Below, piece by piece: positions 1,219-51,017 of a DNA stretch of 51,017 nucleotides (position 1 is the stretch's first letter; each line of letters opens with the position of its first letter). The notes under the pieces were generated by a model, which made no database searches, was not told the DNA's origin, and saw only the letters and a program-made list of their open reading frames with translations. This DNA is from a plasmid. Where the stretch lies: the sequence record NZ_CP032820.1, one strand, 5' to 3'. Both the position numbers and the translations under genes were made by a program.

Positions 1219-1333
1219 AAAAACACTATTATTTGGAGTTCTTTGATAGGTTTGATAAATTAGCGGTTGGAGTAGGCGGCCATGGCCGCCTACTCCGACA
1301 CAACAAAACTAAACTTGACACAGTTCAGTTTAC
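1..1333 (+). mobile_element. IS256-family insertion sequence, partial at window start; right terminus about 1333
   Basis: The right terminal IR core ACTTGACACA (RC TGTGTCAAGT) at 1314-1323 matches the left IR core at 49664-49673. The element is about 1.39 kb if the window is circular. Confidence 0.6.
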
Positions 1334-2299
1334 ACTCCCTTTTACTGAAGTTTGCATTAATAAAGAATATACTACAGCTGATATATGCGCAACATATTGT
1401 GACGCTTGTGATTCATTTCCCTTGAAATCCTTAACAAATACCGCTAAGGTATAACTGATATTATTAGGCAGACATATATAGGCAACATCATTGTGAGCTG
1501 CAAGAACACCATTTTCATTAACATAACCTGAACCTGTCTTATGCGCTATAACAACCCCTTCTTTATCAAGAAGTGGAGCTGCTATCCTATCTACACCTGT
1601 TTTGCATTCTTTTAACGTATTCTTAATGAAACTTTGTTTCTCATCATCGATAAGACCTTCAGTAAACAAACGATTCATCAACATTGCAGCACCAAGAGGA
1701 GATGTATAGTTAGAGTAAGCCTTGTTATGGTCAGCCGACATTTCCTCTTCCGTATAAGCTATCTGAAAACTTGAACGAGGAATGAGTGTGGCTATAAAAC
1801 TATCTGTTTGAGCGACATTAACCATATCCTTAAACATAAGGTTGCTTGCATTGTTGTCACTCTGAGTAAGAGTATAACGCAGCAAATCTCTCACTGTCAA
1901 TGATATGACTGGCCCTGAATAATCTTTCAGCATAGGACTCCAAGTCTTTGGGTCAAGTTTATCCCTATTTATATTTACTAAGGTATCAAGTGAAATTCCT
2001 TTATTGTCAAAGTCATTACAAAGAGCTAATGCCTGATGAACCTTAAACACACTCATCATAGGATAAACACTCTTATTATTGACCTTAACCGTATCTCTGT
2101 TATTAACAATAACCGCCACACCAATTTCGCCAGGACAAGCTGAGACAATTTGAGAAATGCTATCAGTCAAAACATTTGTTAAAGGAGGATTTGCGCTATC
2201 TTTTGTCGCTGATTTATGGAACAATGAAAATACCAAGATGAAAATGCAAACTAAAGCTATACACAAAACTACGATTTGTTTTTTTCTGTTTTTTCCCAT
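1325..2299 (-). CDS. cfxA: Class A beta-lactamase, CfxA family (cefoxitin resistance)
   Basis: 324-aa protein with class A motifs S-V-F-K, S-D-N and K-T-G and a signal peptide. The sequence matches what I recall of Bacteroides/Prevotella CfxA nearly residue for residue. The E in KGNESQ is consistent with the CfxA2/3-type K272E substitution, which I recall only tentatively. Confidence 0.9.
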   Translation of the reverse strand: MGKNRKKQIVVLCIALVCIFILVFSLFHKSATKDSANPPLTNVLTDSISQIVSACPGEIGVAVIVNNRDTVKVNNKSVYPMMSVFKVHQALALCNDFDNKGISLDTLVNINRDKLDPKTWSPMLKDYSGPVISLTVRDLLRYTLTQSDNNASNLMFKDMVNVAQTDSFIATLIPRSSFQIAYTEEEMSADHNKAYSNYTSPLGAAMLMNRLFTEGLIDDEKQSFIKNTLKECKTGVDRIAAPLLDKEGVVIAHKTGSGYVNENGVLAAHNDVAYICLPNNISYTLAVFVKDFKGNESQASQYVAHISAVVYSLLMQTSVKGSVN

Positions 2300-5658: not shown

Positions 5659-6417
5659 ATGAATATTCTCAATGAGAAAAAAGAAGTAACTCCAATTATA
5701 ACCCCAAGTCTTGGTTATAAATTACGTTCCATTAACTGGAACGAGGATTTCTATTTTGACAACCCCATTGATAAAGAGAAAATAAATAGTATTCCCAAAG
5801 CTATAGAAATATCCAAAGATATATTTCTTGCTATTGAGAAGAGTGGAATGCAGTATAGAGAAACTTATAAATGGGATGAATATTTATACTTCAAAATGAC
5901 AGCGGAAAATATTTTTGCAGCAACCATATACTATTACTGCAAACACTATCCTAAAGAATATTGTAATCTTGCTTACATCATAGCAACCGTATGTAATCCT
6001 GATATAAGTATTTTGTCAGAAATGCTAAAGCGTGATAGGGAAACTGAAATATTTATAAGAGGATTGAATGAGTGTCATACCTTAAATGTTGGTTCGGAAT
6101 TCACTGGAATCAAAAATGAATTAACCACATATTTAGGAAGGCTATATACTAAAGAATTCTTCTATTTGTTCACAGAAGGAAAATATTCCCCTAATACATC
6201 CCAATTTATCCTACTTCACTATTTCGATAATGTAATATGGCAAGTGGAACAATTACAGAAAAATGGTTTTTTGTTCTTGGAATCAAATATAAAAAAAGAG
6301 AATGATGAAGAATCCTTATATGATAGTTATGATGATGGCATTCCTATAAAATTTCTAATAAACAAAGGGCGTCTTGATTTTTCGAAAATCATGTATGAAT
6401 CCACAGAAAAAAAATGA
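5659..6417 (+). CDS. Hypothetical protein in the tra operon
   Basis: 252-aa ORF, co-oriented and tightly packed with its neighbours. No recognisable motif. Confidence 0.4.
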   Translation: MNILNEKKEVTPIITPSLGYKLRSINWNEDFYFDNPIDKEKINSIPKAIEISKDIFLAIEKSGMQYRETYKWDEYLYFKMTAENIFAATIYYYCKHYPKEYCNLAYIIATVCNPDISILSEMLKRDRETEIFIRGLNECHTLNVGSEFTGIKNELTTYLGRLYTKEFFYLFTEGKYSPNTSQFILLHYFDNVIWQVEQLQKNGFLFLESNIKKENDEESLYDSYDDGIPIKFLINKGRLDFSKIMYESTEKK

Positions 6418-26165: not shown

Positions 26166-26590
26166 TATCAAAAAAGCATAGGGACAAAAACCCAACTTTT
26201 TAAAATATGTTTTTTTTAGATAGGGACAAAAACCCAACTTTCGATTGATTAGTTGTATCATATAGTGTCTTTTTTTGTTAATAGGTGTTCTTTTCCCTAA
26301 AGTTTGTGTTAAGATTATGAGAAAAGTTCCTTTTTTATGGGTTTATGTAATAAGAAAAGTTCCTTTTTTGTGTTTGGTATGATTATCAGGTTTTTTTTTA
26401 TCAGCTAGTGATGGTAGTACCCTTAAAAATGAAAGGGTAACTATCTGAAAAACAACAGATAATGGTAAAAAATCAGGGACAAAAACCCAACTTCTTAGGG
26501 ACAAAAACCCAACTTCTTAGGGACAAAAACCCAACTTCTTAGGGACAAAAACCCAACTTTTAGCCCCCTCCTAGGGACAAAAACCCAACT
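26166..26590. repeat. Iteron region (putative oriV): about 7 copies of GGGACAAAAACCCAACTT, including 4 tandem 22-bp units at 26474-26561
   Basis: Tandem AGGGACAAAAACCCAACTTCTT x4 and dispersed copies at about 26179, 26231 and 26572. Also GAAAAGTTCCTTTTTT x2 and the hairpin TACCCTTaaaaatgaaAGGGTA. Confidence 0.75.
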
Positions 26591-26591
26591 T

Positions 26592-27749
26592 TTATTCATC
26601 TTCTTTTTCTTCTCCAATCATTCCGGGGAGTATTTCTACTTCTTTTAATAATACGGATAAACAATATTCTGCTTTATTTGAAATTTTATTCCAGTTATCT
26701 CTAACATATTCGCCTAGATAAAGCATCTTAGTTACTACTGCTTTATAGTTGCTTAATGTAATCTGTGGAATAAACTGCTGCAAATGCTCGTCCTTCATTG
26801 CAAAGTGCAAAGAACAAAAATTCGTTATCATCTTCTTTTGTCCTTTTAATAGTTCTTCTTCCTTCTTTGATAATGCAGACTTAATAACTTTGAAATTAAG
26901 TTTATAAGGCTGTGTATCGCCTGAATTACGATAAACTTCTGCCATTTCAAACCAGCAATCAGCCTGTTCAAACAAATCATCGTAAACAGGGCGTATTACA
27001 CGTTTATACAAATCTTTAAATTCGGGGTATTTATCTTCTAATTTTAAGAATTTCCGAAATCTATCCACATAGATAGAAAAACCACCTTTTTCTTTCCATG
27101 AGCTAATCAGCATATACATTCTTATTGTATATCTACTTTGCGCTCTTAAAGCTATCTCTTTTATATAGCGTGTAAAACCTCTATCAACATTAATGAAAAC
27201 TTTAGCAACCTCTCTATCCATTTCTAAAGAAAAACCTCTTGAATAAGGAGTTTTAGGTATATTTGCCTTAGTGAATAAACCAGTAATAGACCAACTATCC
27301 TCACCTGTTATTGGGTCTTTAACATCAAGCTCTACAGGAATACTGATTAATTTACGAACCATGCTTTTTACTTCCTTGTATTGGTCTGGATTAACGCCCA
27401 AATCCCGATATGCGATATCTACTCTTATACGGTCTGAATATTCTTGAAATAAAGATAATTGCTCGCATGGAATAGATGTACCATATTTATCTAGATGCTG
27501 AATACTTAATTCTATGACATCCTGTAATTTCTCTATAACAGCAATTAAGATTCTAATCTGTACTGTCTTAAAATCACCAGCCATTAATGTAACTACATTA
27601 GGTTGTTTCAGCCATGTGGGATTTTCTGGGAGTTTCACAGGAAGATTTGTACGAGGATGCCCTTTCCTAATTCTAACAATCTCACCGTCTATTTCTTCTT
27701 TTTCTTCTTTCACCGCACGTTTTCGGGCTTTTATTTCTCTATTTACCAT
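26592..27749 (-). CDS. Plasmid replication initiator protein (Rep), iteron-associated
   Basis: 385-aa basic protein directly abutting the iteron array. Resembles Bacteroidales plasmid RepA-type initiators. Confidence 0.6.
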   Translation of the reverse strand: MVNREIKARKRAVKEEKEEIDGEIVRIRKGHPRTNLPVKLPENPTWLKQPNVVTLMAGDFKTVQIRILIAVIEKLQDVIELSIQHLDKYGTSIPCEQLSLFQEYSDRIRVDIAYRDLGVNPDQYKEVKSMVRKLISIPVELDVKDPITGEDSWSITGLFTKANIPKTPYSRGFSLEMDREVAKVFINVDRGFTRYIKEIALRAQSRYTIRMYMLISSWKEKGGFSIYVDRFRKFLKLEDKYPEFKDLYKRVIRPVYDDLFEQADCWFEMAEVYRNSGDTQPYKLNFKVIKSALSKKEEELLKGQKKMITNFCSLHFAMKDEHLQQFIPQITLSNYKAVVTKMLYLGEYVRDNWNKISNKAEYCLSVLLKEVEILPGMIGEEKEDE

Positions 27750-41540: not shown

Positions 41541-42476
41541 ATGAAAGCAACCCGAAAATGCAGTTTTTGCGGCAAGTCCTTTGTAACCCGCAGCGGAATG
41601 CAAAGGTATTGCAGCGAGGCTTGTCAGGCAGAAGCCCGGCGAGCCAGAATGACACAGAAGAATAACCTCTTCAAGGCCGTCCGGCCAATCATGGAGATAC
41701 AGCATCAGGAGTATCTCACCTTTTCCAAGGCAGCCATACTCATGGGCTGTTCCCGACAGTACATCTATAAACTTGTAGCCATGGGCAAGCTGAAAGCCTC
41801 ACGCATCAGCAACCGCATGGCATTCATCCGCAGAGCCGACATCGAGCGGATGCTGGAGGGCAATCCCTACCACCGCATCCTGCCCGGCAGCACTTCCACA
41901 CCGAAAAAATCCGCTTCATCTTCCTTTCCGGGCAAAAAAGAAAAAAGGGAAAAGGGAGGCGATGAGATTTTGGACTTCTATTCCGGTGAAGAGGTGATGT
42001 CCCTTTATAAGGTCAAACAGTCATGGCTCTATACCACCGCCAAACGCAACCGCATTCCCATCTGCCGCATCGCTGGAAAGAACTATTACAGCAAGAAGCA
42101 TGTTGACGAGTTCTTCTGTGCGGCTGTTGATATGGAAAGTATCACCGACTGGCTCCTGACCGGAGAGGCGGAAGAGCTGTTCGGCATGAAGCCTGCCGCA
42201 CTCCGGGCATATGCCTACCGGCACAGGATACCGACCATAAGAGAATACGGCCGCACCTATTACTCCAAGTCCCATCTGGACGAACTCCGCAGAACCGATC
42301 TTGTGAACGACGAGCGTTATTACACCGTGGAACAGGTCCGGCAGATTTACGGGCTTTCCTCAGCCAACATCTGCCATATCGTCAAGGTTAAGCACATCGA
42401 AAAGATAAAGGTCGGCGTGAAGAACCTGCTTCTGCGCTCCGACGTGGAGCGTGTCATGGCTGAAAGGAACAAATAA
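41541..42476 (+). CDS. DNA-binding protein with N-terminal zinc ribbon and four tandem excisionase/MerR-like HTH repeats
   Basis: CSFCGKSF..YCSEAC zinc ribbon. Four repeats of the pattern YxxxxAAxxxGxSRQxIYKLV...G.L.A.RI..R..F.R.D.E. Confidence 0.5.
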   Translation: MKATRKCSFCGKSFVTRSGMQRYCSEACQAEARRARMTQKNNLFKAVRPIMEIQHQEYLTFSKAAILMGCSRQYIYKLVAMGKLKASRISNRMAFIRRADIERMLEGNPYHRILPGSTSTPKKSASSSFPGKKEKREKGGDEILDFYSGEEVMSLYKVKQSWLYTTAKRNRIPICRIAGKNYYSKKHVDEFFCAAVDMESITDWLLTGEAEELFGMKPAALRAYAYRHRIPTIREYGRTYYSKSHLDELRRTDLVNDERYYTVEQVRQIYGLSSANICHIVKVKHIEKIKVGVKNLLLRSDVERVMAERNK

Positions 42477-42616: not shown

Positions 42617-43735
42617 ATGAGTAAATGCAAGACAGTAACCTTGCGCAAGCGCAAGATCAAGAACGGTACACAGTATTCGCTGTGTCTGGACTATTATCCC
42701 GGCTACCGTGACAACACCACCATGAAAGTGATAACACGTGAAGCTCTGGGTATTTACATTTTTGCCAAGCCTGCCAACCAGCAGGAGCGTGACTTCAACG
42801 CACGCATGATGAAGAAGGCGGAGATACTCCGCAACAGGCGTTACGAAGCCATCTTCAACGAGAACAACGGCTTCTTTGACAAGGCTAAGATGAAGGGGGA
42901 TTTCCTCGCCTACTTCAAGGAACTGGCAGACAGGAGAAATATCAAGTGGCAGCACGTCTACAAGCACTTCGAGCGGTTCGTGGGCGGCAAATGTACCTTT
43001 GAAGAGGTGGATGTGGACCTGTGCCGCAAGTTCATGGAGTACCTGCTGAACGCTCCCCAGACCATACACACCAACCAAAAGCTGCATATCAATTCTGCGG
43101 CAGGCTACTGGTCGGCTTTCCGTGCCGTCCTGCACACGGCCTACCGTGACAGGAAGATAAAGGAGAATCCCAACGGCTTTCTGGACCGTATCGAGAGTAT
43201 TCCCACCATGAGGGAGCATCTGAGCCAGGAGGAACTGATACGGCTTGCCGAAACGCCATGCGAGGAAGAGGTTCTGAAAAGGGCTTTCCTTTTCGCCTGC
43301 CTGACAGGATTGAGGAAGAGCGACATCAGGCAGCTTACCTGGCAGCAGATACAGCCGTACACCAACGGCAAGATGTTCGTTACCACCCGTATGCAGAAGA
43401 CGAAGCAGATTGTTCACAATCCCATCAGCGATGAAGCCTACGGACTGCTCGGGGAGCGGCATGAAGGGCTTATCTTCGAGGGCTTCAAGGATAAGATGCT
43501 GCAGGGGCCCCTGAAGCGTTGGCTGTCAGCGGCAGGCATAACCAAGAAGATAACCTTCCATTGCACCCGGCATTCATTCGGAAGCCTGCACGTGGAAATG
43601 GGCACGGACATGGCTGTCATACAAGCCTGTCTGGGACACAAGAACATTACCACCACACAGATCTATTCCAAGATGGCTGCACAGCAGATGTGTGACGTGG
43701 TGGACAAGATAACCCTGAAACGCAAGGAGGCATAG
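42617..43735 (+). CDS. Tyrosine site-specific integrase (IntN1-like)
   Basis: C-terminal catalytic residues in context: R...HCTRHSFGS...LGHKNITTTQIYSK (R-H-R-Y). Confidence 0.85.
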   Translation: MSKCKTVTLRKRKIKNGTQYSLCLDYYPGYRDNTTMKVITREALGIYIFAKPANQQERDFNARMMKKAEILRNRRYEAIFNENNGFFDKAKMKGDFLAYFKELADRRNIKWQHVYKHFERFVGGKCTFEEVDVDLCRKFMEYLLNAPQTIHTNQKLHINSAAGYWSAFRAVLHTAYRDRKIKENPNGFLDRIESIPTMREHLSQEELIRLAETPCEEEVLKRAFLFACLTGLRKSDIRQLTWQQIQPYTNGKMFVTTRMQKTKQIVHNPISDEAYGLLGERHEGLIFEGFKDKMLQGPLKRWLSAAGITKKITFHCTRHSFGSLHVEMGTDMAVIQACLGHKNITTTQIYSKMAAQQMCDVVDKITLKRKEA

Positions 43736-43976: not shown

Positions 43977-44807
43977 ATGGAACCAACGATAAAGGACAAA
44001 TACATCATTCTGGGATTCATCGGCGTTGCCATCTGCCTGATTTCCTTTTTTATCACACTGATTGTCTCCGCAAGTTTCAATCAGGACAATTTTGTAAGGC
44101 TGATAGTCTTTGTATGCAGCAACATTCTCGGCTGGCTGCTCTATCTCTCTTTCCAGACGGTCATTTTCGACTCATACGAGATCTGGAAACTCAAGTCCGG
44201 CAAGAAAAAGGCATCTGCCGGAATCATAAAGGCTCAGGAAGAACAGCCACAGGATACGCATGAACCTGCTGCTCCGACACCGATGCCGACAGGCGGGGAA
44301 GCAACCCCGGATATAAAACCGGTAGAGATTGCCATTGCCCCGGAACTTCACGAAAAGAACCGTGCCAGCTATGAGGACAGACAGAAGCAGGAAGAAGCGG
44401 AACGGATCCGCATGGTCATGGAGTACATCCACTTCGTCATGCCCCGTATTGCCGACAAGGAGACCGTCAACCATATCTGTGCCGAGGTCAACAAGTGGAT
44501 GTGCCTTCACAGCTACAAGCCCAAGCCGATAACAGGACGGCTGACCAGAGAGATTACCAACATTCCGCTCCGCCATTTCGTGTGGAACATCTCCGAGCGT
44601 TTCATGTACAAGAAATACTACAACGGGGACAACCGTGCCAATTTTATCAAGACCCTTTTTCCACGTGAATTTGCCGACACGGATATAGCGACCATAAAGA
44701 ACTTCAAGGTCGATCCGTCAAAGACGCTGATTCCCATTGACGAACCCGAAAACGGCAGTCTGGACTTCCATTATCCCGAAGATTATGTACGGGAAGTGAA
44801 CAGTTGA
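43977..44807 (+). CDS. Hypothetical membrane protein with Pro/Glu-rich linker
   Basis: 276 aa. Two N-terminal TM helices. Confidence 0.4.
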   Translation: MEPTIKDKYIILGFIGVAICLISFFITLIVSASFNQDNFVRLIVFVCSNILGWLLYLSFQTVIFDSYEIWKLKSGKKKASAGIIKAQEEQPQDTHEPAAPTPMPTGGEATPDIKPVEIAIAPELHEKNRASYEDRQKQEEAERIRMVMEYIHFVMPRIADKETVNHICAEVNKWMCLHSYKPKPITGRLTREITNIPLRHFVWNISERFMYKKYYNGDNRANFIKTLFPREFADTDIATIKNFKVDPSKTLIPIDEPENGSLDFHYPEDYVREVNS

Positions 44808-45017
44808 CCGTTTCCCGGGGATATAACAACAATAACGACAAGTATCAGGCAATACGTAACAGCCTGTATCTCATTGTTTCCCGAATAACTTTGCCCCTCA
44901 TTCACGGTTGGACATCGTTATTCGGGAATTATTTTGCAATGACCTTTCGTGAAGATATTCACGGCCATATCATTGCGGTCCTTTGCGCCAAGCCTTACAA
45001 AAGAGGCGAGTACGCAA

Positions 45018-45392
45018 ATGGAAAAAACAGTGATTACATTCAACGACCTTCCCGAGGTCGTAGCCCAGCTTCGGGACGAAGTGATGAGCTTGAGAAGCCT
45101 GCTTACCGAGCAGCGCAGTGTGAACAATGCAAAGGCGGTGGACACCCATGTCCCCATGTCCGTGGATGAAGCGGCGGAATATCTCGGTATTCCCAAGGGA
45201 ACGCTCTACATGAAACTGTCGGACGGAAGCATTCCGGCCACCAAGCCCGGCAAACGCTATTGCCTTTACCGTGACGAACTGGACAGATGGCTGGAATCCT
45301 CCCGCAAGAATCCCGTACCCCTGTCCGATGAGGAACTCAGCGAGTCCATGTCCTCCTCCCACCGCCGCAAGCCCGGTCAACGTAACTGGTAA
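45018..45392 (+). CDS. Excisionase-family HTH DNA-binding protein (ORF opens at 44949; probable start at MEKTV)
   Basis: HTH_17-like segment VDEAAEYLGIPKGTLYMKLSDGSIPATKPGKRYCLYRDELDRWL. Confidence 0.55.
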   Translation: MEKTVITFNDLPEVVAQLRDEVMSLRSLLTEQRSVNNAKAVDTHVPMSVDEAAEYLGIPKGTLYMKLSDGSIPATKPGKRYCLYRDELDRWLESSRKNPVPLSDEELSESMSSSHRRKPGQRNW

Positions 45393-45397
45393 GAGCC

Positions 45398-46552
45398 ATG
45401 GAAGAGGACAAGAACTATATTAGCATGATACATGGCGACCTGACGAGGGCAGCCCAGATGCAGAACGGTATGCCGGAAAATATCGGTGTAATGAGCATAA
45501 AGACCGCCAACCGGACCATACTCGAAGCATCACAGCTGCCCACGCCCCGTGCGTTGTGGGACAGCTTCTGGTACGAGGGGGAACTGTCCTGCCTCTTTGC
45601 AGATTCCAACGTGGGGAAATCCATCCTTGCCGTCCAGATAGCCGACCGTATAGCACGGACTGACAACGTGCTTTATCTGGACTTTGAACTCTCTGAAAAG
45701 CAGTTCCAGCTCCGCTATACCGACGAGTACGGAAAGCCTTACATTTTTCCCGAAAGGCTGTACCGGGTATCGCTTGACTGCGACGCCCTTCTCGATGCCG
45801 ACTTTGAAGGGACGATCATCGGCAGCATCGAACAGATGGCACAGCAGACCCGCTGCAGGATCTTCATCGTTGACAACCTTACTTACCTGTGCTGTGCCAT
45901 GGAGAAAGGCGATGCGGCGGGACGGCTGATGATACAGCTCAACAATCTCAAAAAGAGATACGGGCTTTCCATCCTAGTCCTGGCACACACCCCAAAGCGT
46001 TCACTGGACTGTCCCATCACGTCCAACGACCTTGCCGGAAGCAAGCGGCTCTACAATTTCTTTGACAGCGTGTTTGTCATCGGGAAAAGCGCACTGGACG
46101 GGGGACTACGCTATGTGAAGCAGCTCAAGGTCCGTTACGGGACATTCTCGTACGATGCCGACAATGTGATTGTCTATGAGATTGAGAAAACGGACGCCTT
46201 CCTGCAATTCGTGTTCAGGGGCTATTCAACCGAAAAGGAACACCTGAAGAAACCGGGTGACAACGAATCGGGACAAAGGGATTGCCTTATCCTGCAACTG
46301 TCCCAATCAGGGAAGTCAGTCCGGGAGATAGCCTCGCAGGTCAATTGCGGCAAGTCCACCGTCAGCCGGATAATCCAGCGCAGCAAGGAGGACAGGAACG
46401 CGGCCGTCCCGGGTGTCCCGCTGTCCCGTCCCAAGGAGAACGGGACAATGGGACAGGTGGGACAGCATGGGACAGATGGGACAAGCGGGACAGCAGGAGA
46501 AGCAAGGCAGGCGGATCTGTTTGCAGGACATGAAAAGGAGGACAAGCCATGA
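45398..46552 (+). CDS. AAA-family ATPase (RepA/DnaB-loader-like, AAA_25-type) with C-terminal HTH
   Basis: Walker A DSNVGKS, Walker B IFIVDN, C-terminal HTH (SVREIASQVNCGKSTVSRI). Confidence 0.6.
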   Translation: MEEDKNYISMIHGDLTRAAQMQNGMPENIGVMSIKTANRTILEASQLPTPRALWDSFWYEGELSCLFADSNVGKSILAVQIADRIARTDNVLYLDFELSEKQFQLRYTDEYGKPYIFPERLYRVSLDCDALLDADFEGTIIGSIEQMAQQTRCRIFIVDNLTYLCCAMEKGDAAGRLMIQLNNLKKRYGLSILVLAHTPKRSLDCPITSNDLAGSKRLYNFFDSVFVIGKSALDGGLRYVKQLKVRYGTFSYDADNVIVYEIEKTDAFLQFVFRGYSTEKEHLKKPGDNESGQRDCLILQLSQSGKSVREIASQVNCGKSTVSRIIQRSKEDRNAAVPGVPLSRPKENGTMGQVGQHGTDGTSGTAGEARQADLFAGHEKEDKP

Positions 46553-47853
46553 AAAAGCAGCCTGCACACGGCTGTATGACAGCCGACCGTATCATTTACA
46601 GGACATGGGAGCATACAAACCGGGCCCTGATTTTCCAGAGTGTCCCGGGGTGTCCCAAGTGTCCCACTGTCCCAGCCTTTAGGGGGCGGGACAGTGGGAC
46701 AACGGGACAAACAGTAGAAAACCAATCATCAAAAAAAGTCATGAGCAACTATTCATTACAGAAATATAAAGGAACGTCAACACGGCATACCTGTCCGAAT
46801 TGCGGGGACAGACGTTCCTTTGCCTACTACGTGGACGAAAGCGGTACGCCCCTTCACCCGTCAGTCGGCAGATGCAACCACGAAAGCGGCTGCGGGTATC
46901 ATTATACGCCCAGACAGTATTTTCACGACCACCCCGAATGCCGGACCGCCGGTGATTTCTCTTCCGGCAGGCAATGTATGGCGCAGAAGCCCAAGCAACC
47001 GCTGCAACAGACAGCCATCGGTTACATACCGCCACACTATGTGGAGAAATCGCAGAGCTTGCATAGCAACTTCTGCCGTTTCCTTTCAGTACTGCTTGAT
47101 TCCTATTACGGCAGCAAGGCAAAGGAAGTGCTGGAACGGTTGATGGAGGATTACCGTCTGGGAGCTACCCGTGACGGTGCGGTCATCTTCTGGCAGATTG
47201 ACCGGGAGAACAAGGTACGGACAGGCAAGGTGATGCAGTACAATCCCGGGGACGGACACCGTGTAAAGGACGGACAGACATCGGCAGTGAACTGGATACA
47301 CAGCATACTGAAAAGGCAACGGGTACTGGCGGAGGGATGGCAGCTTTCCCAATGCCTTTTCGGGGAACACCTGTTGAGTGTCTATCCTGACAAGGTGGCG
47401 GTTCTGGTGGAATCCGAGAAGAGTGCCGTTATCGGTTCCGCCCTCTTCCCCGGCTATGTATGGCTGGCGGCAGGAGGCAAAAGCCAGTTGCGGGAGGAAA
47501 AGCTCCGTGTGCTGACCGGGCGGACCGTGCTTCTCTTTCCGGATGCCGATGCCTATGCCGAATGGAAAGAGCGTGCCGACGGCATGACCTTCTGCAAGGT
47601 GATGGTGTCTGACCTCATAGAGAAGAACGCAACGCCGGAGCAGAAGGCGGCACATATCGACATAGCCGACTGGATAATCTTCCAGATCCGGGAAAGCAGG
47701 ATAAATTGTACAGCCGACCATCTGGTGGAAGCGGAAAGAATCCTGCAAAGGATGATAGAAAAGAACCCCGCCCTTCAAAAGCTGATAGATGATCTGGGGC
47801 TTGTGCTGGTCGGTGCATCCTCAATCGGCAGCGGTGACGGAACCCCTCCTTAA
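46549..47853 (+). CDS. DNA primase (CHC2 zinc finger plus Toprim; PrmN1-like)
   Basis: CPNCGDRRSF...CNHESGCGYH zinc finger. Toprim E (LVESEKSAV) and DxD (FPDADAYAEW). Confidence 0.7.
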   Translation: MKKQPAHGCMTADRIIYRTWEHTNRALIFQSVPGCPKCPTVPAFRGRDSGTTGQTVENQSSKKVMSNYSLQKYKGTSTRHTCPNCGDRRSFAYYVDESGTPLHPSVGRCNHESGCGYHYTPRQYFHDHPECRTAGDFSSGRQCMAQKPKQPLQQTAIGYIPPHYVEKSQSLHSNFCRFLSVLLDSYYGSKAKEVLERLMEDYRLGATRDGAVIFWQIDRENKVRTGKVMQYNPGDGHRVKDGQTSAVNWIHSILKRQRVLAEGWQLSQCLFGEHLLSVYPDKVAVLVESEKSAVIGSALFPGYVWLAAGGKSQLREEKLRVLTGRTVLLFPDADAYAEWKERADGMTFCKVMVSDLIEKNATPEQKAAHIDIADWIIFQIRESRINCTADHLVEAERILQRMIEKNPALQKLIDDLGLVLVGASSIGSGDGTPP

Positions 47854-48135: not shown

Positions 48136-49539
48136 ATGGCAACAAAATCAAGCATACATATCAAGCCCTGCAACATCGCATCGAGCGAGGCTCACAACAG
48201 GAGGACTGCCGAATACATGCGCCACATCGGAGAGTCCAGAATCTATGTCGTTCCTGAACTATCCACCGATAACGAACAGTGGATAAATCCCGACTTCGGC
48301 AGTCCGGATTTGCGGACGCATTATGACAATATCAGACAGATGGTAAAGGAAAAGACCGGACGTGCCATGCAGGAAAAGGAGCGTGAACGCAAAGGCAAGA
48401 ACGGTAAAATAGTCAAGATTGCGGGATGCTCCCCCATACGTGAAGGAGTGCTGCTTGTCAGGTCGGACACCACACTGGCAGACGTGCGTAAATTCGGTGA
48501 GGAGTGTCAAAGACGCTGGGGAATCACACCGCTGCAAATCTTCCTGCACAAGGATGAAGGGCATTGGCTGAACGGTCAGCCGGAAGCGGAAGACAGGGAA
48601 AGCTTCAAAGTCGGGGACAGATGGTTCAAGCCGAACTATCATGCCCATATCGTTTTCGACTGGATGAACCACGAAACAGGAAAGAGCCGAAAGCTCAATG
48701 ACGATGACATGATGCAGATGCAGACCCTTGCATCCGACATCCTGCTGATGGAACGCGGGCAGTCAAAGGTTGTCACTGGTAAGGAGCATCTGGAACGGAA
48801 CGACTTTATCATTGAGAAGCAGAAAGCTGAACTGCAACGCATGGATGCAGCCAAACGGCACAAAGAAGAACAGATAAATCTTGCCGAGCAGGAACTGAAA
48901 CAGGTGAAATCAGAAATACGCACTGACAAGTTAAAGAAGACAGCCACCACGGCAGCGACAGCCATAACTAGTGGAGTTGCTTCTCTTTTCGGGAGTGGAA
49001 AACTGAAAGAACTGGAACGTGCCAACGAAAAACTGCAAGACGAGGTTTCAAAACGGAACACCAATATTGAAAAATTGCAGAGCCAAGTACAGCAGATGCA
49101 GAAACAGCATGATACGCAAATCCACAATCTCAGAGAAATGCACAGGCAGGAACTTGACATGAAAGAAAAAGAACTGTCACGGCTCGCCAGAATCATAGAC
49201 AAGGCTTTTAGGTGGTTTCCGATGTTCAGGGAAATGCTGCGCATGGAAAAGTTTTGTGCCATGCTGGGATTCTCTAAAGAAATGACTGAAAGTCTTATAG
49301 TCAAAAAAGAAGCCCTGAAATGTAGCGGTAAAATCTATTCCGAGCAACACAGGCGGAACTTTGATATAAAGGATGATATTTTAAGGGTGGAAAATGACCC
49401 TGACGATGAAAGCAGGCTGAACCTGACAATAAACAGGAAGCCGATTGCCGACTGGTTCAGGGAGCAATGGCACAGGCTTAGATATGGAGCAAGAGTGCCG
49501 CAACAGGAAGAAAGAAAAAGTAGAGGATTCAAATTATAA
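48136..49539 (+). CDS. Mobilization relaxase (MobN1/Tn4555 MobA-like)
   Basis: N-terminal relaxase region with HAHIVFDW His motif and a long coiled-coil C-terminus. Confidence 0.7.
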   Translation: MATKSSIHIKPCNIASSEAHNRRTAEYMRHIGESRIYVVPELSTDNEQWINPDFGSPDLRTHYDNIRQMVKEKTGRAMQEKERERKGKNGKIVKIAGCSPIREGVLLVRSDTTLADVRKFGEECQRRWGITPLQIFLHKDEGHWLNGQPEAEDRESFKVGDRWFKPNYHAHIVFDWMNHETGKSRKLNDDDMMQMQTLASDILLMERGQSKVVTGKEHLERNDFIIEKQKAELQRMDAAKRHKEEQINLAEQELKQVKSEIRTDKLKKTATTAATAITSGVASLFGSGKLKELERANEKLQDEVSKRNTNIEKLQSQVQQMQKQHDTQIHNLREMHRQELDMKEKELSRLARIIDKAFRWFPMFREMLRMEKFCAMLGFSKEMTESLIVKKEALKCSGKIYSEQHRRNFDIKDDILRVENDPDDESRLNLTINRKPIADWFREQWHRLRYGARVPQQEERKSRGFKL

Positions 49540-49653: not shown

Positions 49654-51017
49654 AAATTAAAGTGTGTCAAGTAAGGTAAAAAATAATAACTTTAGACACA
49701 CTTTTTTATTATGAGCGAAAGATTTGATTACGAACAGTTCAAGGCGAACGCCATAGAACAATTGAAGGCGGGAGTACCACTATCCGGCAAGGACGGAGTA
49801 TTGGCACCGCTGTTGGAGAATCTGCTTAACAGCGCGCTGGAAGGAGAGATGGACAGCCATCTGGAAGGAGTAGAACGGGAGTACGGGAATCGGCGCAACG
49901 GGCACATGAGCAAGCAGGTCCAGACCTCGATGGGCGAAATAACGATCAACACGCCGCGGGACAGGGACGGGACATTCGACCCGCAGGTTGTCCGGAAGAG
50001 GGAGAAGATACTGGCGGACTCATTGGCGGACAGGATAATAGGGCTGTATGCCATCGGGAACAGCACGAGGGAGATAAGCGACATACTGGAGGAGCAGTTC
50101 GGGAACAGGATATCGGCGGAGACGATCAGCAGCATCACGGACAGGGTGCTGCCGGAGATCCAGGCATGGAAGAGCCGGGCGCTGGAAAGCGTCTATCCCA
50201 TAGTATGGCTTGATGCGGTGCATTATAAGGTGATGGACGAGAAGAACCGTCCTGTGACCAGAGCCATATATAATGTTCTGGCAATCAATTCGGAAGGCCG
50301 CAAGGAATTGCTCGGGATGTACATATCCAAGAGCGAGGGTGCGAACTTCTGGCTGGGTGTCCTGACCGACCTCCAGAGCAGAGGAGTCCGGGACATCCTC
50401 ATAGCGTGCGTTGACGGGCTGAAGGGTTTCCCGGATGCGATAGCGAGCGTCTTTCCCGAGACCACGGTGCAGTTGTGTATAGTCCACCAGATACGCAACT
50501 CGATAAAGTATGTGGCCAGCAAGCGGCAGAAGGAGTTCATGAAGGATCTGAAGCAGGTCTACCAGGCGGTGAACAAGGATGCGGCGGAACAGGCTCTGGA
50601 TGAGCTGGAACTGAAGTGGGGCGAGGACTATCCGATAGTCATCAAGAGCTGGCGTGACAACTGGGAAAGGCTCAGCGCGTACTTCCAATACTCCGAACAC
50701 ATACGGCGCATAATATACACCACCAACACCGTGGAGGGCTACCACCGCCAGTTGCGTAAGGTCACCAAGAACAAGGGGGTCTTTCCGAACGACACAGCCC
50801 TCGAAAAACTTGTGTTTATGGCATTTACAAGAATCAGACGCAAGTGGACGCAGCCTGTCCAGAACTGGGGTCAGACTGCCCAGCAACTGGCCATCCTGTT
50901 CCCGGACAGGTTCAGGATACTGTCCTGAAAAAACACTATTATTTGGAGTTCTTTGATAGGTTTGATAAATTAGCGGTTGGAGTAGGCGGCCATGGCCGCC
51001 TACTCCGACACAACAAA
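49654..51017 (+). mobile_element. IS256-family IS copy B, truncated by the window end; left IR core TGTGTCAAGT at 49664-49673
   Basis: 49711-51017 is identical to 1-1307. The transposase CDS is at 49711..50928. Confidence 0.7.
49711..50928 (+). CDS. IS256-family transposase, copy B
   Basis: Identical to 1..1218. Confidence 0.85.
   Translation: MSERFDYEQFKANAIEQLKAGVPLSGKDGVLAPLLENLLNSALEGEMDSHLEGVEREYGNRRNGHMSKQVQTSMGEITINTPRDRDGTFDPQVVRKREKILADSLADRIIGLYAIGNSTREISDILEEQFGNRISAETISSITDRVLPEIQAWKSRALESVYPIVWLDAVHYKVMDEKNRPVTRAIYNVLAINSEGRKELLGMYISKSEGANFWLGVLTDLQSRGVRDILIACVDGLKGFPDAIASVFPETTVQLCIVHQIRNSIKYVASKRQKEFMKDLKQVYQAVNKDAAEQALDELELKWGEDYPIVIKSWRDNWERLSAYFQYSEHIRRIIYTTNTVEGYHRQLRKVTKNKGVFPNDTALEKLVFMAFTRIRRKWTQPVQNWGQTAQQLAILFPDRFRILS

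Follow-up and report, generated by a model that had tools for sequence, protein, structure and literature searches.

What is the role of the two arrays of short, oppositely oriented repeats that lie at the junction between an ATPase gene and a DUF6371 gene in the plasmid record NZ_CP032820.1, and which protein reads them? The window analysed here is a stretch of 51,017 nucleotides of this record, and both genes belong to a variant of the transposon Tn4555 that carries the resistance gene cfxA. On balance, and with modest confidence, we consider it probable that the arrays are iterons bound by the helix-turn-helix (HTH) domain of the adjacent ATPase, and that they would form an origin-like helicase loading site of the excised Tn4555-type circle. 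The arrays are built as follows.

46406-46492: array 1, coding (ATPase linker), with four leftward units, a 9-bp centre and six rightward GGGACA units
46406-46410 (GTCCC), 46414-46419 (TGTCCC), 46422-46427 (TGTCCC) and 46428-46432 (GTCCC): leftward units of array 1
46442, 46450, 46459, 46469, 46478 and 46487: starts of the rightward GGGACA units of array 1
46641-46709: array 2, non-coding, with four leftward TGTCCC units, a 14-bp centre and three rightward GGGACA units
46641, 46651, 46660 and 46668: starts of the leftward TGTCCC units of array 2
46688, 46696 and 46704: starts of the rightward GGGACA units of array 2

Both arrays had been quoted in an initial annotation of the stretch, and their sequences lie exactly where it placed them. 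Its description as hexamers holds for the GGGACA core but not for the whole unit, which is the heptamer TGGGACA, since a logo built on 151 units of diverse relatives displays T before GGGAC in 77% and A after it in 90%, with variable flanks. On both strands of the window, GGGACA is present 46 times, a count attained in none of 100 dinucleotide-preserving shuffles (13.3 +/- 3.4), and 15 of these 46 matches fall within 46414-46709. The heptamer itself occurs 15 times for 4.0 expected. The units of array 1 fall in frames 0, 2, 1, 1, 0, 2, 2, 0, 0 and 0 and are translated as residues 337-365 of the ATPase, VPGVPLSRPKENGTMGQVGQHGTDGTSGT. The centre of array 2, AGCCTTTAGGGGGC, is not AT-rich.

A first explanation would place the selection at the protein level, on a Gly/Thr/Pro linker, or would see in the arrays a chance low-complexity tract. 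Within the Tn4555 clade, the tail (...VPSVPLSQP...GTMGQDGT...) indeed looks conserved, but the wider family argues otherwise. The ATPase family is large, with 5,228 matches from a single search and, at 50% clustering, 2,385 representatives; our sample comprised 80 genome loci, 80 metagenome loci and the window, giving 85 distinct junctions with 50-99% ATPase protein identity (loci are cited below by their L numbers). Across these 85 junctions the array is found at the 3' end of the ATPase gene, coding in some and non-coding in about half, and it lies wholly past the ATPase stop in about 20 lineages (e.g., L049-L051, L053, L054, L056-L058, L063, and L078). Most of the distant ATPases terminate a few codons after the HTH, which leaves the array in the spacer, and other lineages possess a C-terminal tail. 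Coding units are distributed over frames 0, 1, and 2 (149, 31, and 72 units, respectively), and frameshifted variants retain them. As the units are non-coding or occupy all three frames in distant relatives, selection acts on the DNA of the arrays and not on the peptide. The peptide-repeat explanation was rejected on these grounds, and a chance tract is refuted by an enrichment far above that of the shuffles; taken together, we give these two explanations next to no credence.

The same conclusion was approached with no motif given, by searching each whole locus of about 8 kb for its densest strand-collapsed hexamer cluster. This cluster fell in the ATPase/DUF6371 junction in 34 of 45 distinct genome loci (5% expected by chance, P = 4e-34), and in 21 of 30 when relatives with at most 62% identity were considered. 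Judged by these comparisons, the arrays are under DNA-level selection and positionally locked to the ATPase/DUF6371 pair. The initial annotation had suggested that selection on the DNA overrides the protein sequence and that the arrays are a cluster of protein-binding sites. Both suggestions are borne out among the relatives: the arrays are conserved, the opposite of a conserved peptide with scrambled hexamers, and they behave as a binding-site cluster tied to the ATPase/primase pair of the element.

The layout of the arrays is equally constant. In essentially all of them, two to four leftward units are followed by a short centre and by two to six rightward units ("<<< >>>"), with means of 2.8 units on the left and 3.2 on the right. 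Units of same orientation are spaced by 8-10 bp in 373 of 400 cases, the modal array contains six units, and arrays of 4-11 units begin 0-48 bp past the HTH in most of the 85 junctions, whereas the 1-3 nt spacers between units vary freely. Loci hold one, two or three arrays, and the array number has, to judge from these sequences, been expanded repeatedly. In L122 and L125, whose junctions measure 590-599 bp, three arrays follow one another at intervals of about 180 bp in the segment that separates the ATPase HTH from the DUF6371 start.

Tn4555 itself has a single 3+3 array in the same place, inside the 3' end of its ATPase gene, whereas the variant in the window has two arrays (about 246 bp extra). 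Array 2 of the window and its downstream flank align to the single array of Tn4555, leaving array 1 and positions 46496-46640 as the extra segment; by this alignment, array 2 is the positional ortholog of the Tn4555 array. A 246-bp register repeat links the two arrays, and the spacer holds a decayed remnant of the 3' coding end of the HTH, as seen in the alignment to Tn4555. A tandem-duplication origin of the second array rests on this register and this remnant, since self-alignment of the flanks is weak (score of 26, for a shuffle mean of 7.3 and maximum of 24).

Which protein could read such sites? Our candidate is the ATPase encoded immediately upstream, and its relevant parts are the following.

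45398-46552, plus strand: ATPase gene, 384 amino acids (aa), with a RecA-type ring-ATPase core (AAA_25), a C-terminal three-helix HTH and a disordered tail
46268-46405, plus strand: HTH coding region, residues 291-336, ending exactly at the start of array 1
46349-46369, plus strand: signature of the recognition helix (G-K-S-T-V-S-R, residues 318-324), at the N terminus of helix 3
46508-46522, plus strand: tail motif Q-A-D-L-F, residues 371-375, found again in the form xLF where the proteins of distant relatives end

Pfam domains AAA_25 (1.3e-17) and HTH_23 were detected in this protein, with matches of HTH_23, HTH_7, and GerE type over residues 293-335. Its best solved relatives in a profile search are the helicase domain of T7 gp4, RadA, DnaB, and Twinkle, and the top Foldseek matches of its AlphaFold2 (AF2) model (predicted local distance difference test, pLDDT, of 85.7) are RadA, Twinkle, DnaB, KaiC, and gp4. 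Among PHROGs, "DNA primase/helicase" (2e-17) and "DnaB-like replicative helicase" (5e-12) were retrieved. The Walker A residues G73-K74 as well as D159-N160, H197, K200, and R246 are invariant among 43 diverse relatives. In the model, the HTH helices span residues 291-303, 308-315, and 319-336, the signature at 318-324 starting the third one, which is the expected recognition helix; residues 348-378 have a pLDDT below 50, so that the linker encoded by array 1 is predicted to be disordered. Sequence and model both indicate a ring ATPase of the replicative-helicase class with its own predicted DNA-binding HTH, and not the helicase loader that the initial annotation had seen in it, as its profile, fold and PHROG matches are those of a DnaB/gp4/RadA-type ring ATPase.

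The tails of those ATPases that read through the array end in Q-x-(D/E/T/S)-L-F, with QADLF in the window, and DETLF, DISLF, and TKTLFE before the stop in distant lineages. Tails of the xLF type were seen in L069, L070, L073, L075, L076, L077, and L082, and are absent from Tn4555 proper and from relatives stopping after the HTH. We take this tail to resemble the motifs for sliding-clamp binding or the acidic tails of single-stranded DNA-binding protein (SSB) and gp4.

A link between this HTH and the arrays is suggested by covariation. Units of five classes occur in one and the same architecture, and to each class corresponds a distinct signature where the third HTH helix begins.

GGGACA: helix [SG]K[ST]x[VAI]xR
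TGGACA: helix SKS[MLT]Vx[KN]
TGAACA: helix S[VL]Gx[VI]N[KN]
GATACA: helix SLGK[IV]QR
GAAGCA: helix SESKSYR

Among 29 distinct signatures, a terminal Arg corresponds to G as first base of the unit in 19 of 19 cases and a terminal Lys or Asn corresponds to T in 10 of 10 (the signature SLGKVQR of L088 and L089 was assigned by eye). A near-minimal pair is provided by L123 and L079, in which ISKSTVxR is associated with GGGACA and ISKSTVxN with TGGACA. On a neighbour-joining tree of the ATPase core, from which the HTH was excluded, the unit classes are interleaved (e.g., L091 with GATAC is sister to L094 with GGGAC); parsimony requires at least 12 class switches, and mismatches between helix and unit amount to zero. 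Some arrays have moved to the DUF6371 gene, either to the linker between its domains after the Zn ribbon (L061, 1939-2015; L069, 4795-4845) or near its 3' end (L080, 5315-5427 and 5567-5629; L108, 2308-2420), and in all four loci the unit class is that predicted by the helix; the short contigs L077 and L081 yielded no array anywhere. Since helix-matching arrays are found inside DUF6371, the site can move within the module and tolerates translation in linkers. On this comparative evidence, the units match the recognition helix of the adjacent ATPase.

The start of the second gene of the pair determines how array 2 is to be understood.

46553-46740: non-coding spacer of 188 bp from the ATPase stop to the DUF6371 start, holding the decayed copy of the HTH 3' end and array 2
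46741-47853, plus strand: DUF6371 gene, 370 aa, with an N-terminal Zn ribbon and a Toprim-like core, putative primase
46710-46779: AT-rich stretch (33-35% GC compared to 51% for the element) after the last unit and overlapping the DUF6371 start, candidate unwinding region

In the window, an open reading frame (ORF) starting at ATG 46549 would extend the DUF6371 frame by 64 codons, through array 2. This N-terminal extension was rejected, because in the two-array relatives L005, L008, L009, L013, L014, L015, L042, and L046 the frame is closed by stops upstream of the M(S/G)N-YSLQKY start, in L005 despite a 99% identical ATPase. The Tn4555 gene also starts at ATGGGCAATTATTCATTACAG, the conserved start. 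Comparison thus places the true start at ATG 46741, and the extension from 46549 appears as an accidental open frame. A DUF6371 start at 46741 leaves array 2 outside coding sequence and removes the overlap of the two genes. The initial annotation had let the arrays straddle an overlap of the ATPase stop and the primase start, which has to be given up; it had also supposed that they force low-complexity linkers in both proteins, which remains valid for the ATPase (residues 337-365) and fails for the primase-like protein.

In each of the 42 loci compared, GC content is lower over the 50 bp past the last unit than it is in the genes on either side. In a control, GC was 39% past the last unit and 45% at the start regions of ATPase genes (p = 0.002). 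The AT-rich stretch is consistent with a melting region, without being decisive, and its designation as a proven unwinding element was dropped, being only partly supported after the control for start-codon regions.

An array lying before a gene may also be an operator, by which the HTH of the ATPase, or another protein of the element, would regulate the genes from DUF6371 to mob with no role in replication. The last unit does lie 12-45 bp (median 30; one outlier at 92 bp) upstream of the DUF6371 start in 41 loci, the binding domain is of a regulator type (HTH_23/GerE/resolvase), and many initiators also autoregulate. However, the Bacteroides-type -7 motif (TAnnTTTG) is present in only 2 of 85 junctions with no sigma-70-like promoter, and no clustered units were found at the other promoters of the element. 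Arrays relocated into the linker or the 3' end of DUF6371 lose the operator geometry and keep the match between helix and unit, 5-17 units in one to three copies appear excessive for an operator, and a plain repressor would not need the invariant catalytic residues of the ATPase. We regard expression control as an unlikely function of the arrays. A search for intrinsic terminators yielded no plus-strand terminator-like sites.

The inverted sets could instead act as a hairpin, folding in the transferred single strand or extruding as a cruciform, either as a single-strand initiation (ssi) site for priming of the complementary strand once conjugative transfer has taken place or, in the intergenic mRNA, as an RNA structure. 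Folding energies of the arrays in single-stranded DNA form are -21 to -29 kcal/mol (z-scores of -3.8 to -7.2); moreover, it is as a single DNA strand that the element is mobilised, and a primase-like protein is among its products. Such a hairpin would re-create double-stranded units and could thus coexist with HTH binding. Yet only 34 of 102 arrays have equal arms, leaving many conserved units that cannot be paired (e.g., 2 versus 5, or 1 versus 4), and spacings that differ between the arms would produce bulges. It is the unit that is conserved and not the complementarity of the arms, given the free variation of the spacers, and Rfam returned only sub-threshold matches to generic hairpins (20-29 bits for cut-offs of 45-100). 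A hairpin as the selected feature is in our opinion quite improbable.

Regarding the DUF6371 protein, Pfam recognises DUF6371 (1e-51) and Zn_ribbon_16 (5e-25), and a permissive Pfam scan added nothing to these two domains. The PHROG "DNA primase" matched residues 201-296 weakly (3.3e-5), and a sequence search of the PDB gave no match. Residues E224, E226, D268, and D270 are invariant, in the motifs VESEKS and PDAD, which would be compatible with the glutamate and the DxD of Toprim domains. The protein may be called primase-like, albeit weakly.

If the arrays are a loading site, the following course of events can be proposed. A Tn4555-type element would excise as a circle, and the HTH domains of the ATPase would occupy the two opposed sets of TGGGACA, typically five to seven units spaced by 8-10 bp with their GGG ends toward the centre. 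This occupancy would assemble the ring ATPase on the DNA beside the AT-rich stretch at 46710-46779, the likely melting region, and the helicase would load itself there. The Zn-ribbon/Toprim-like protein, a likely primase whose gene is only 12-45 bp away, would then lay down primers. The site would thereby be an origin from which the excised circle would replicate transiently, as in the Rep-iteron system of the pathogenicity islands of Staphylococcus aureus (SaPIs) and the Cch2-iteron system of the staphylococcal cassette chromosome mec (SCCmec). Array binding, helicase activity, primase activity, and any replication are what we infer from the data above.

The element encodes other DNA-binding proteins that could claim the arrays, and its remaining genes are therefore listed here.

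41541-42476: TnpA-like gene, with three HTH
42617-43735: integrase gene
43977-44807: TnpC-like gene
44949-45392: excisionase gene (HTH_17)
48136-49539: mobilisation protein gene
49711-50928, plus strand: insertion of the IS256 family (insertion sequence, IS), between mob and cfxA, upstream of cfxA on the strand of cfxA
1325-2299, minus strand: cfxA, class A beta-lactamase of the CfxA family (match at 2.3e-214), part of the Tn4555-like element

The arrays could be sites for the excisionase (Xis), for the TnpA with its three HTH or for the arm domain of the integrase, or they could be a centromere-like site, with a role in excision, targeting or segregation. The several further HTH proteins of the element speak for it, as does the excision of NBU1, which depends on an extensive internal region comprising two further genes, the origin of transfer oriT, and part of the relaxase gene (PMC5704250). 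Over at least 12 switches, however, the arrays track the HTH of the ATPase in position and class, and they lie about 3-4 kb from the ends of the element, where arm-type sites are expected. As for a centromere-like site, the ATPase is of the DnaB/RadA type and not a ParA-type partition ATPase. We find this family of explanations very unlikely.

Several observations nevertheless weigh against a loading site and origin. In the literature, such elements figure as units that do not replicate (PMC13597742). When 72,556 plasmid records were searched by tblastn, the ATPase was recovered in only seven, all copies of Tn4555; because of this low number the module is not a stable plasmid replicon, an option that was rejected, and any replication would be transient. 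The centre between the unit sets measures 5-14 bp and is not AT-rich, unlike SaPI origins, and the composition of translation starts explains part of the AT-richness downstream. The link of DUF6371 to primases is weak (E = 3e-5) and its AF2 model is unusable (pLDDT of 39.9). The code for the HTH adjoins the array, so that co-switching could partly reflect recombination of one segment instead of coupling; since a single recombination could move both, co-switching alone is no proof of binding. The requirements of NBU1 excision cited above count here as well. Genes of the ATPase/primase type are presumably among the NBU1 excision genes, in which case the module may have a role in excision instead of replication.

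How does the proposed loading site compare with known systems? The IncQ plasmid RSF1010 combines a RepA-type helicase of superfamily 4 (SF4), a group covered by AAA_25, with its own primase RepB', iterons, and host-independent priming. It uses a separate initiator, RepC, on 20-bp direct iterons and the hairpins ssiA and ssiB for the primase. Here, on the contrary, the helicase-like protein has its own HTH, the units measure 7 bp and are arranged in inverted sets, and a separate initiator was not seen. In phage P4 (alpha protein on ori and crr), SV40 (T antigen), and papillomavirus (E1), a helicase with a sequence-specific domain acts on short repeats in both orientations, and symmetric site sets suggest two oppositely oriented rings. 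These are SF3 helicases, with an N-terminal binding domain in the viral proteins and with primase and helicase in one chain in P4.

The SaPIs and phage-inducible chromosomal islands (PICIs) are integrative elements like the present one, and the C-terminal domain of their self-loading helicase reads short iterons located just downstream of its own ORF (PMC9371898). In SaPIs, 6-12 penta- or hexanucleotide iterons with at least two opposed units per side are found with an adjacent primase gene, and the iterons are island-specific (PMC9371898). The Tn4555-type loci likewise combine a helicase-class ATPase, whose C-terminal HTH is predicted to bind DNA, with short iterons at or after the 3' end of the helicase gene, at least two opposed units on each side in essentially all arrays, and, on comparative evidence, specificity of the iterons to their cognate helicase. 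They differ in several respects. The SaPI Rep proteins belong to AAA+ clades (SF3 or MCM-related) with a winged-helix C-terminal domain, whereas the core is here RecA-type and SF4-like (AAA_25) with an HTH of resolvase/GerE type; no homology to SaPI Rep/Cch was found, the closest sequences and folds being RecA-type, which makes the present ATPase an analogue and not a homologue. In SaPIs the iteron sets flank a central AT-rich region, which was not found here, where the AT-rich stretch lies downstream of a centre of 5-14 bp. The order primase-helicase-origin of SaPIs is replaced by helicase-origin-primase, with iterons that often overlap coding sequence, and the replication of SaPIs is proven, whereas that of the present elements is a proposal drawn from sequence comparison.

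SCCmec provides another parallel, since this element was long assumed not to replicate and the C-terminal domain of its helicase Cch2 binds short iterons directly past its own gene (PMC7581432). Preferred priming sites map to the iteron region, and the authors propose an origin for replication after excision, citing SV40 T antigen and papillomavirus E1 as examples (PMC7581432). Cch2, a relative of Cch and the SaPI Reps, is a helicase of 3'-5' polarity with only three direct 5-nt AAGTG repeats and a polymerase-type CCPol-MP primase complex; in the loci studied here, the heptamers number 5-17 and form inverted sets, and the partner protein is Zn-ribbon/Toprim-like. The principle of a helicase that reads iterons beside its own gene is thus known. 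What would be new is an SF4/RecA-type helicase with an HTH, inverted sets of heptamers often translated as its own linker, the setting in the Tn4555 family, and at least five exchangeable classes. In the literature searched, which did not include the original Tn4555 papers, no description of these repeats, of a replication function of Tn4555 or of DUF6371 in this context was found.

A different pair of an AAA ATPase and a toprim protein, unrelated to the present one, was seen in L002 with its own repeats in the spacer (6183-6297), namely a direct repeat of 28 nt that includes CGGGTGTATATA and inverted arms of 17 nt, GTTTAGTCCG and CGGACTAAAC. This pair may be of the NBU1/MTnBf8 type, and the layout with a site between ATPase and primase may be more general.

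The sequence of the window also places the arrays in their genomic context. The window is a wrapped circle, positions 1-1307 being identical to 49711-51017, which gives a molecule of 49,710 bp, and the IS256-family transposase ORFs at 1-1218 and 49711-50928 are thus a single copy. GC content is about 31% over most of the molecule and 50-55% in the array-bearing insert, which sequence comparison identifies as a cfxA-carrying Tn4555 variant. It shares 85% identity with annotated Tn4555 copies across 95% of 8.7 kb, and the gene order tnpA-int-tnpC-xis-ATPase-DUF6371-mob-cfxA is that of Tn4555, as expected for a member of this family. The variant differs from Tn4555 by its longer ATPase tail ending in QADLF and by the IS256-family insertion between mob and cfxA. 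The plasmid backbone carries its own replication region.

26592-27749, minus strand: Rep_3 initiator gene
26476-26590: Rep_3 iterons, five 22-bp direct repeats (TAGGGACAAAAACCCAACTTCT) adjoining the stop end of rep, with two further copies at 26181 and 26223

By its sequence, the region 26181-26590 is the Rep_3 plasmid origin. The Rep iteron has the GGGACA core in common with the arrays, which the initial annotation had thought a possible coincidence, and this caution was justified: elements with 99% identical ATPases and the same arrays reside in unrelated chromosomal contigs devoid of this plasmid, and a link to the Rep_3 iterons was discarded. An iteron plasmid origin of the Rep_3 type was also rejected for the arrays themselves, as their units are 7 bp long in inverted sets compared to 22-bp direct repeats, and no Rep_3 gene exists in the element.

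ATPase genes 86-99% identical to that of the window, with the same arrays, were found in L003, L023, and L025, metagenome-assembled genomes (MAGs) titled Eubacterium sp., Selenomonas sp., and Lachnospiraceae. These copies in Firmicutes MAGs reflect either a binning error or a host range beyond the Bacteroidota. Tn4555-type elements were also seen in complete circular records deposited as plasmids, i.e., CP103138.1 (L083), CP103131.1, and NZ_OY725959.1, of 10.0, 11.6, and 15.7 kb. The first one (10,057 bp) was checked and is a bare Tn4555, with Tn4555 genes only and no other replication gene. Since a bare circle was deposited as a complete record, the free circular form of Tn4555 must be abundant enough to assemble, which supports replication indirectly.

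A wider proposal can be drawn from these data, which we put forward tentatively and with less than even confidence. Tn4555-type transposons of Bacteroidota, considered as non-replicating, would replicate transiently from a heptamer-iteron origin read by the HTH of a self-loading SF4 helicase. The cassette formed by the HTH and its iterons would have been exchanged at least 12 times, giving at least five mutually exclusive specificity groups in which an Arg at the end of the helix reads G and a Lys or Asn reads T, and the origin would often be translated as the disordered linker of its own binder.

Whatever the fate of this proposal, the translation of a cis-acting site into a disordered linker clearly illustrates how constraints at the DNA and protein levels can overlap. 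With 85 junctions, five classes and a clean correlation between residue and base, the system is ready for mutagenesis and could yield orthogonal pairs of origin and initiator for Bacteroides genetics. The design in which a helicase binds iterons beside its own gene, represented by the AAA+ enzymes of SaPI and SCCmec, would be extended to SF4/RecA-type helicases. To our knowledge, few self-loading helicases of this type have been characterised. Tn4555 and its relatives spread cfxA, and with it resistance to cefoxitin and other beta-lactams, among gut and oral Bacteroidota, and excision, transfer and integration are taken to be all that they do. An origin of their own, with its helicase and primase, may account for the large internal region that related elements require, besides integrase and excisionase, for apparent "excision." It would also give the element control over its copy number after excision, its stability in the donor and its establishment in the recipient, and would thus bear on the spread of resistance.

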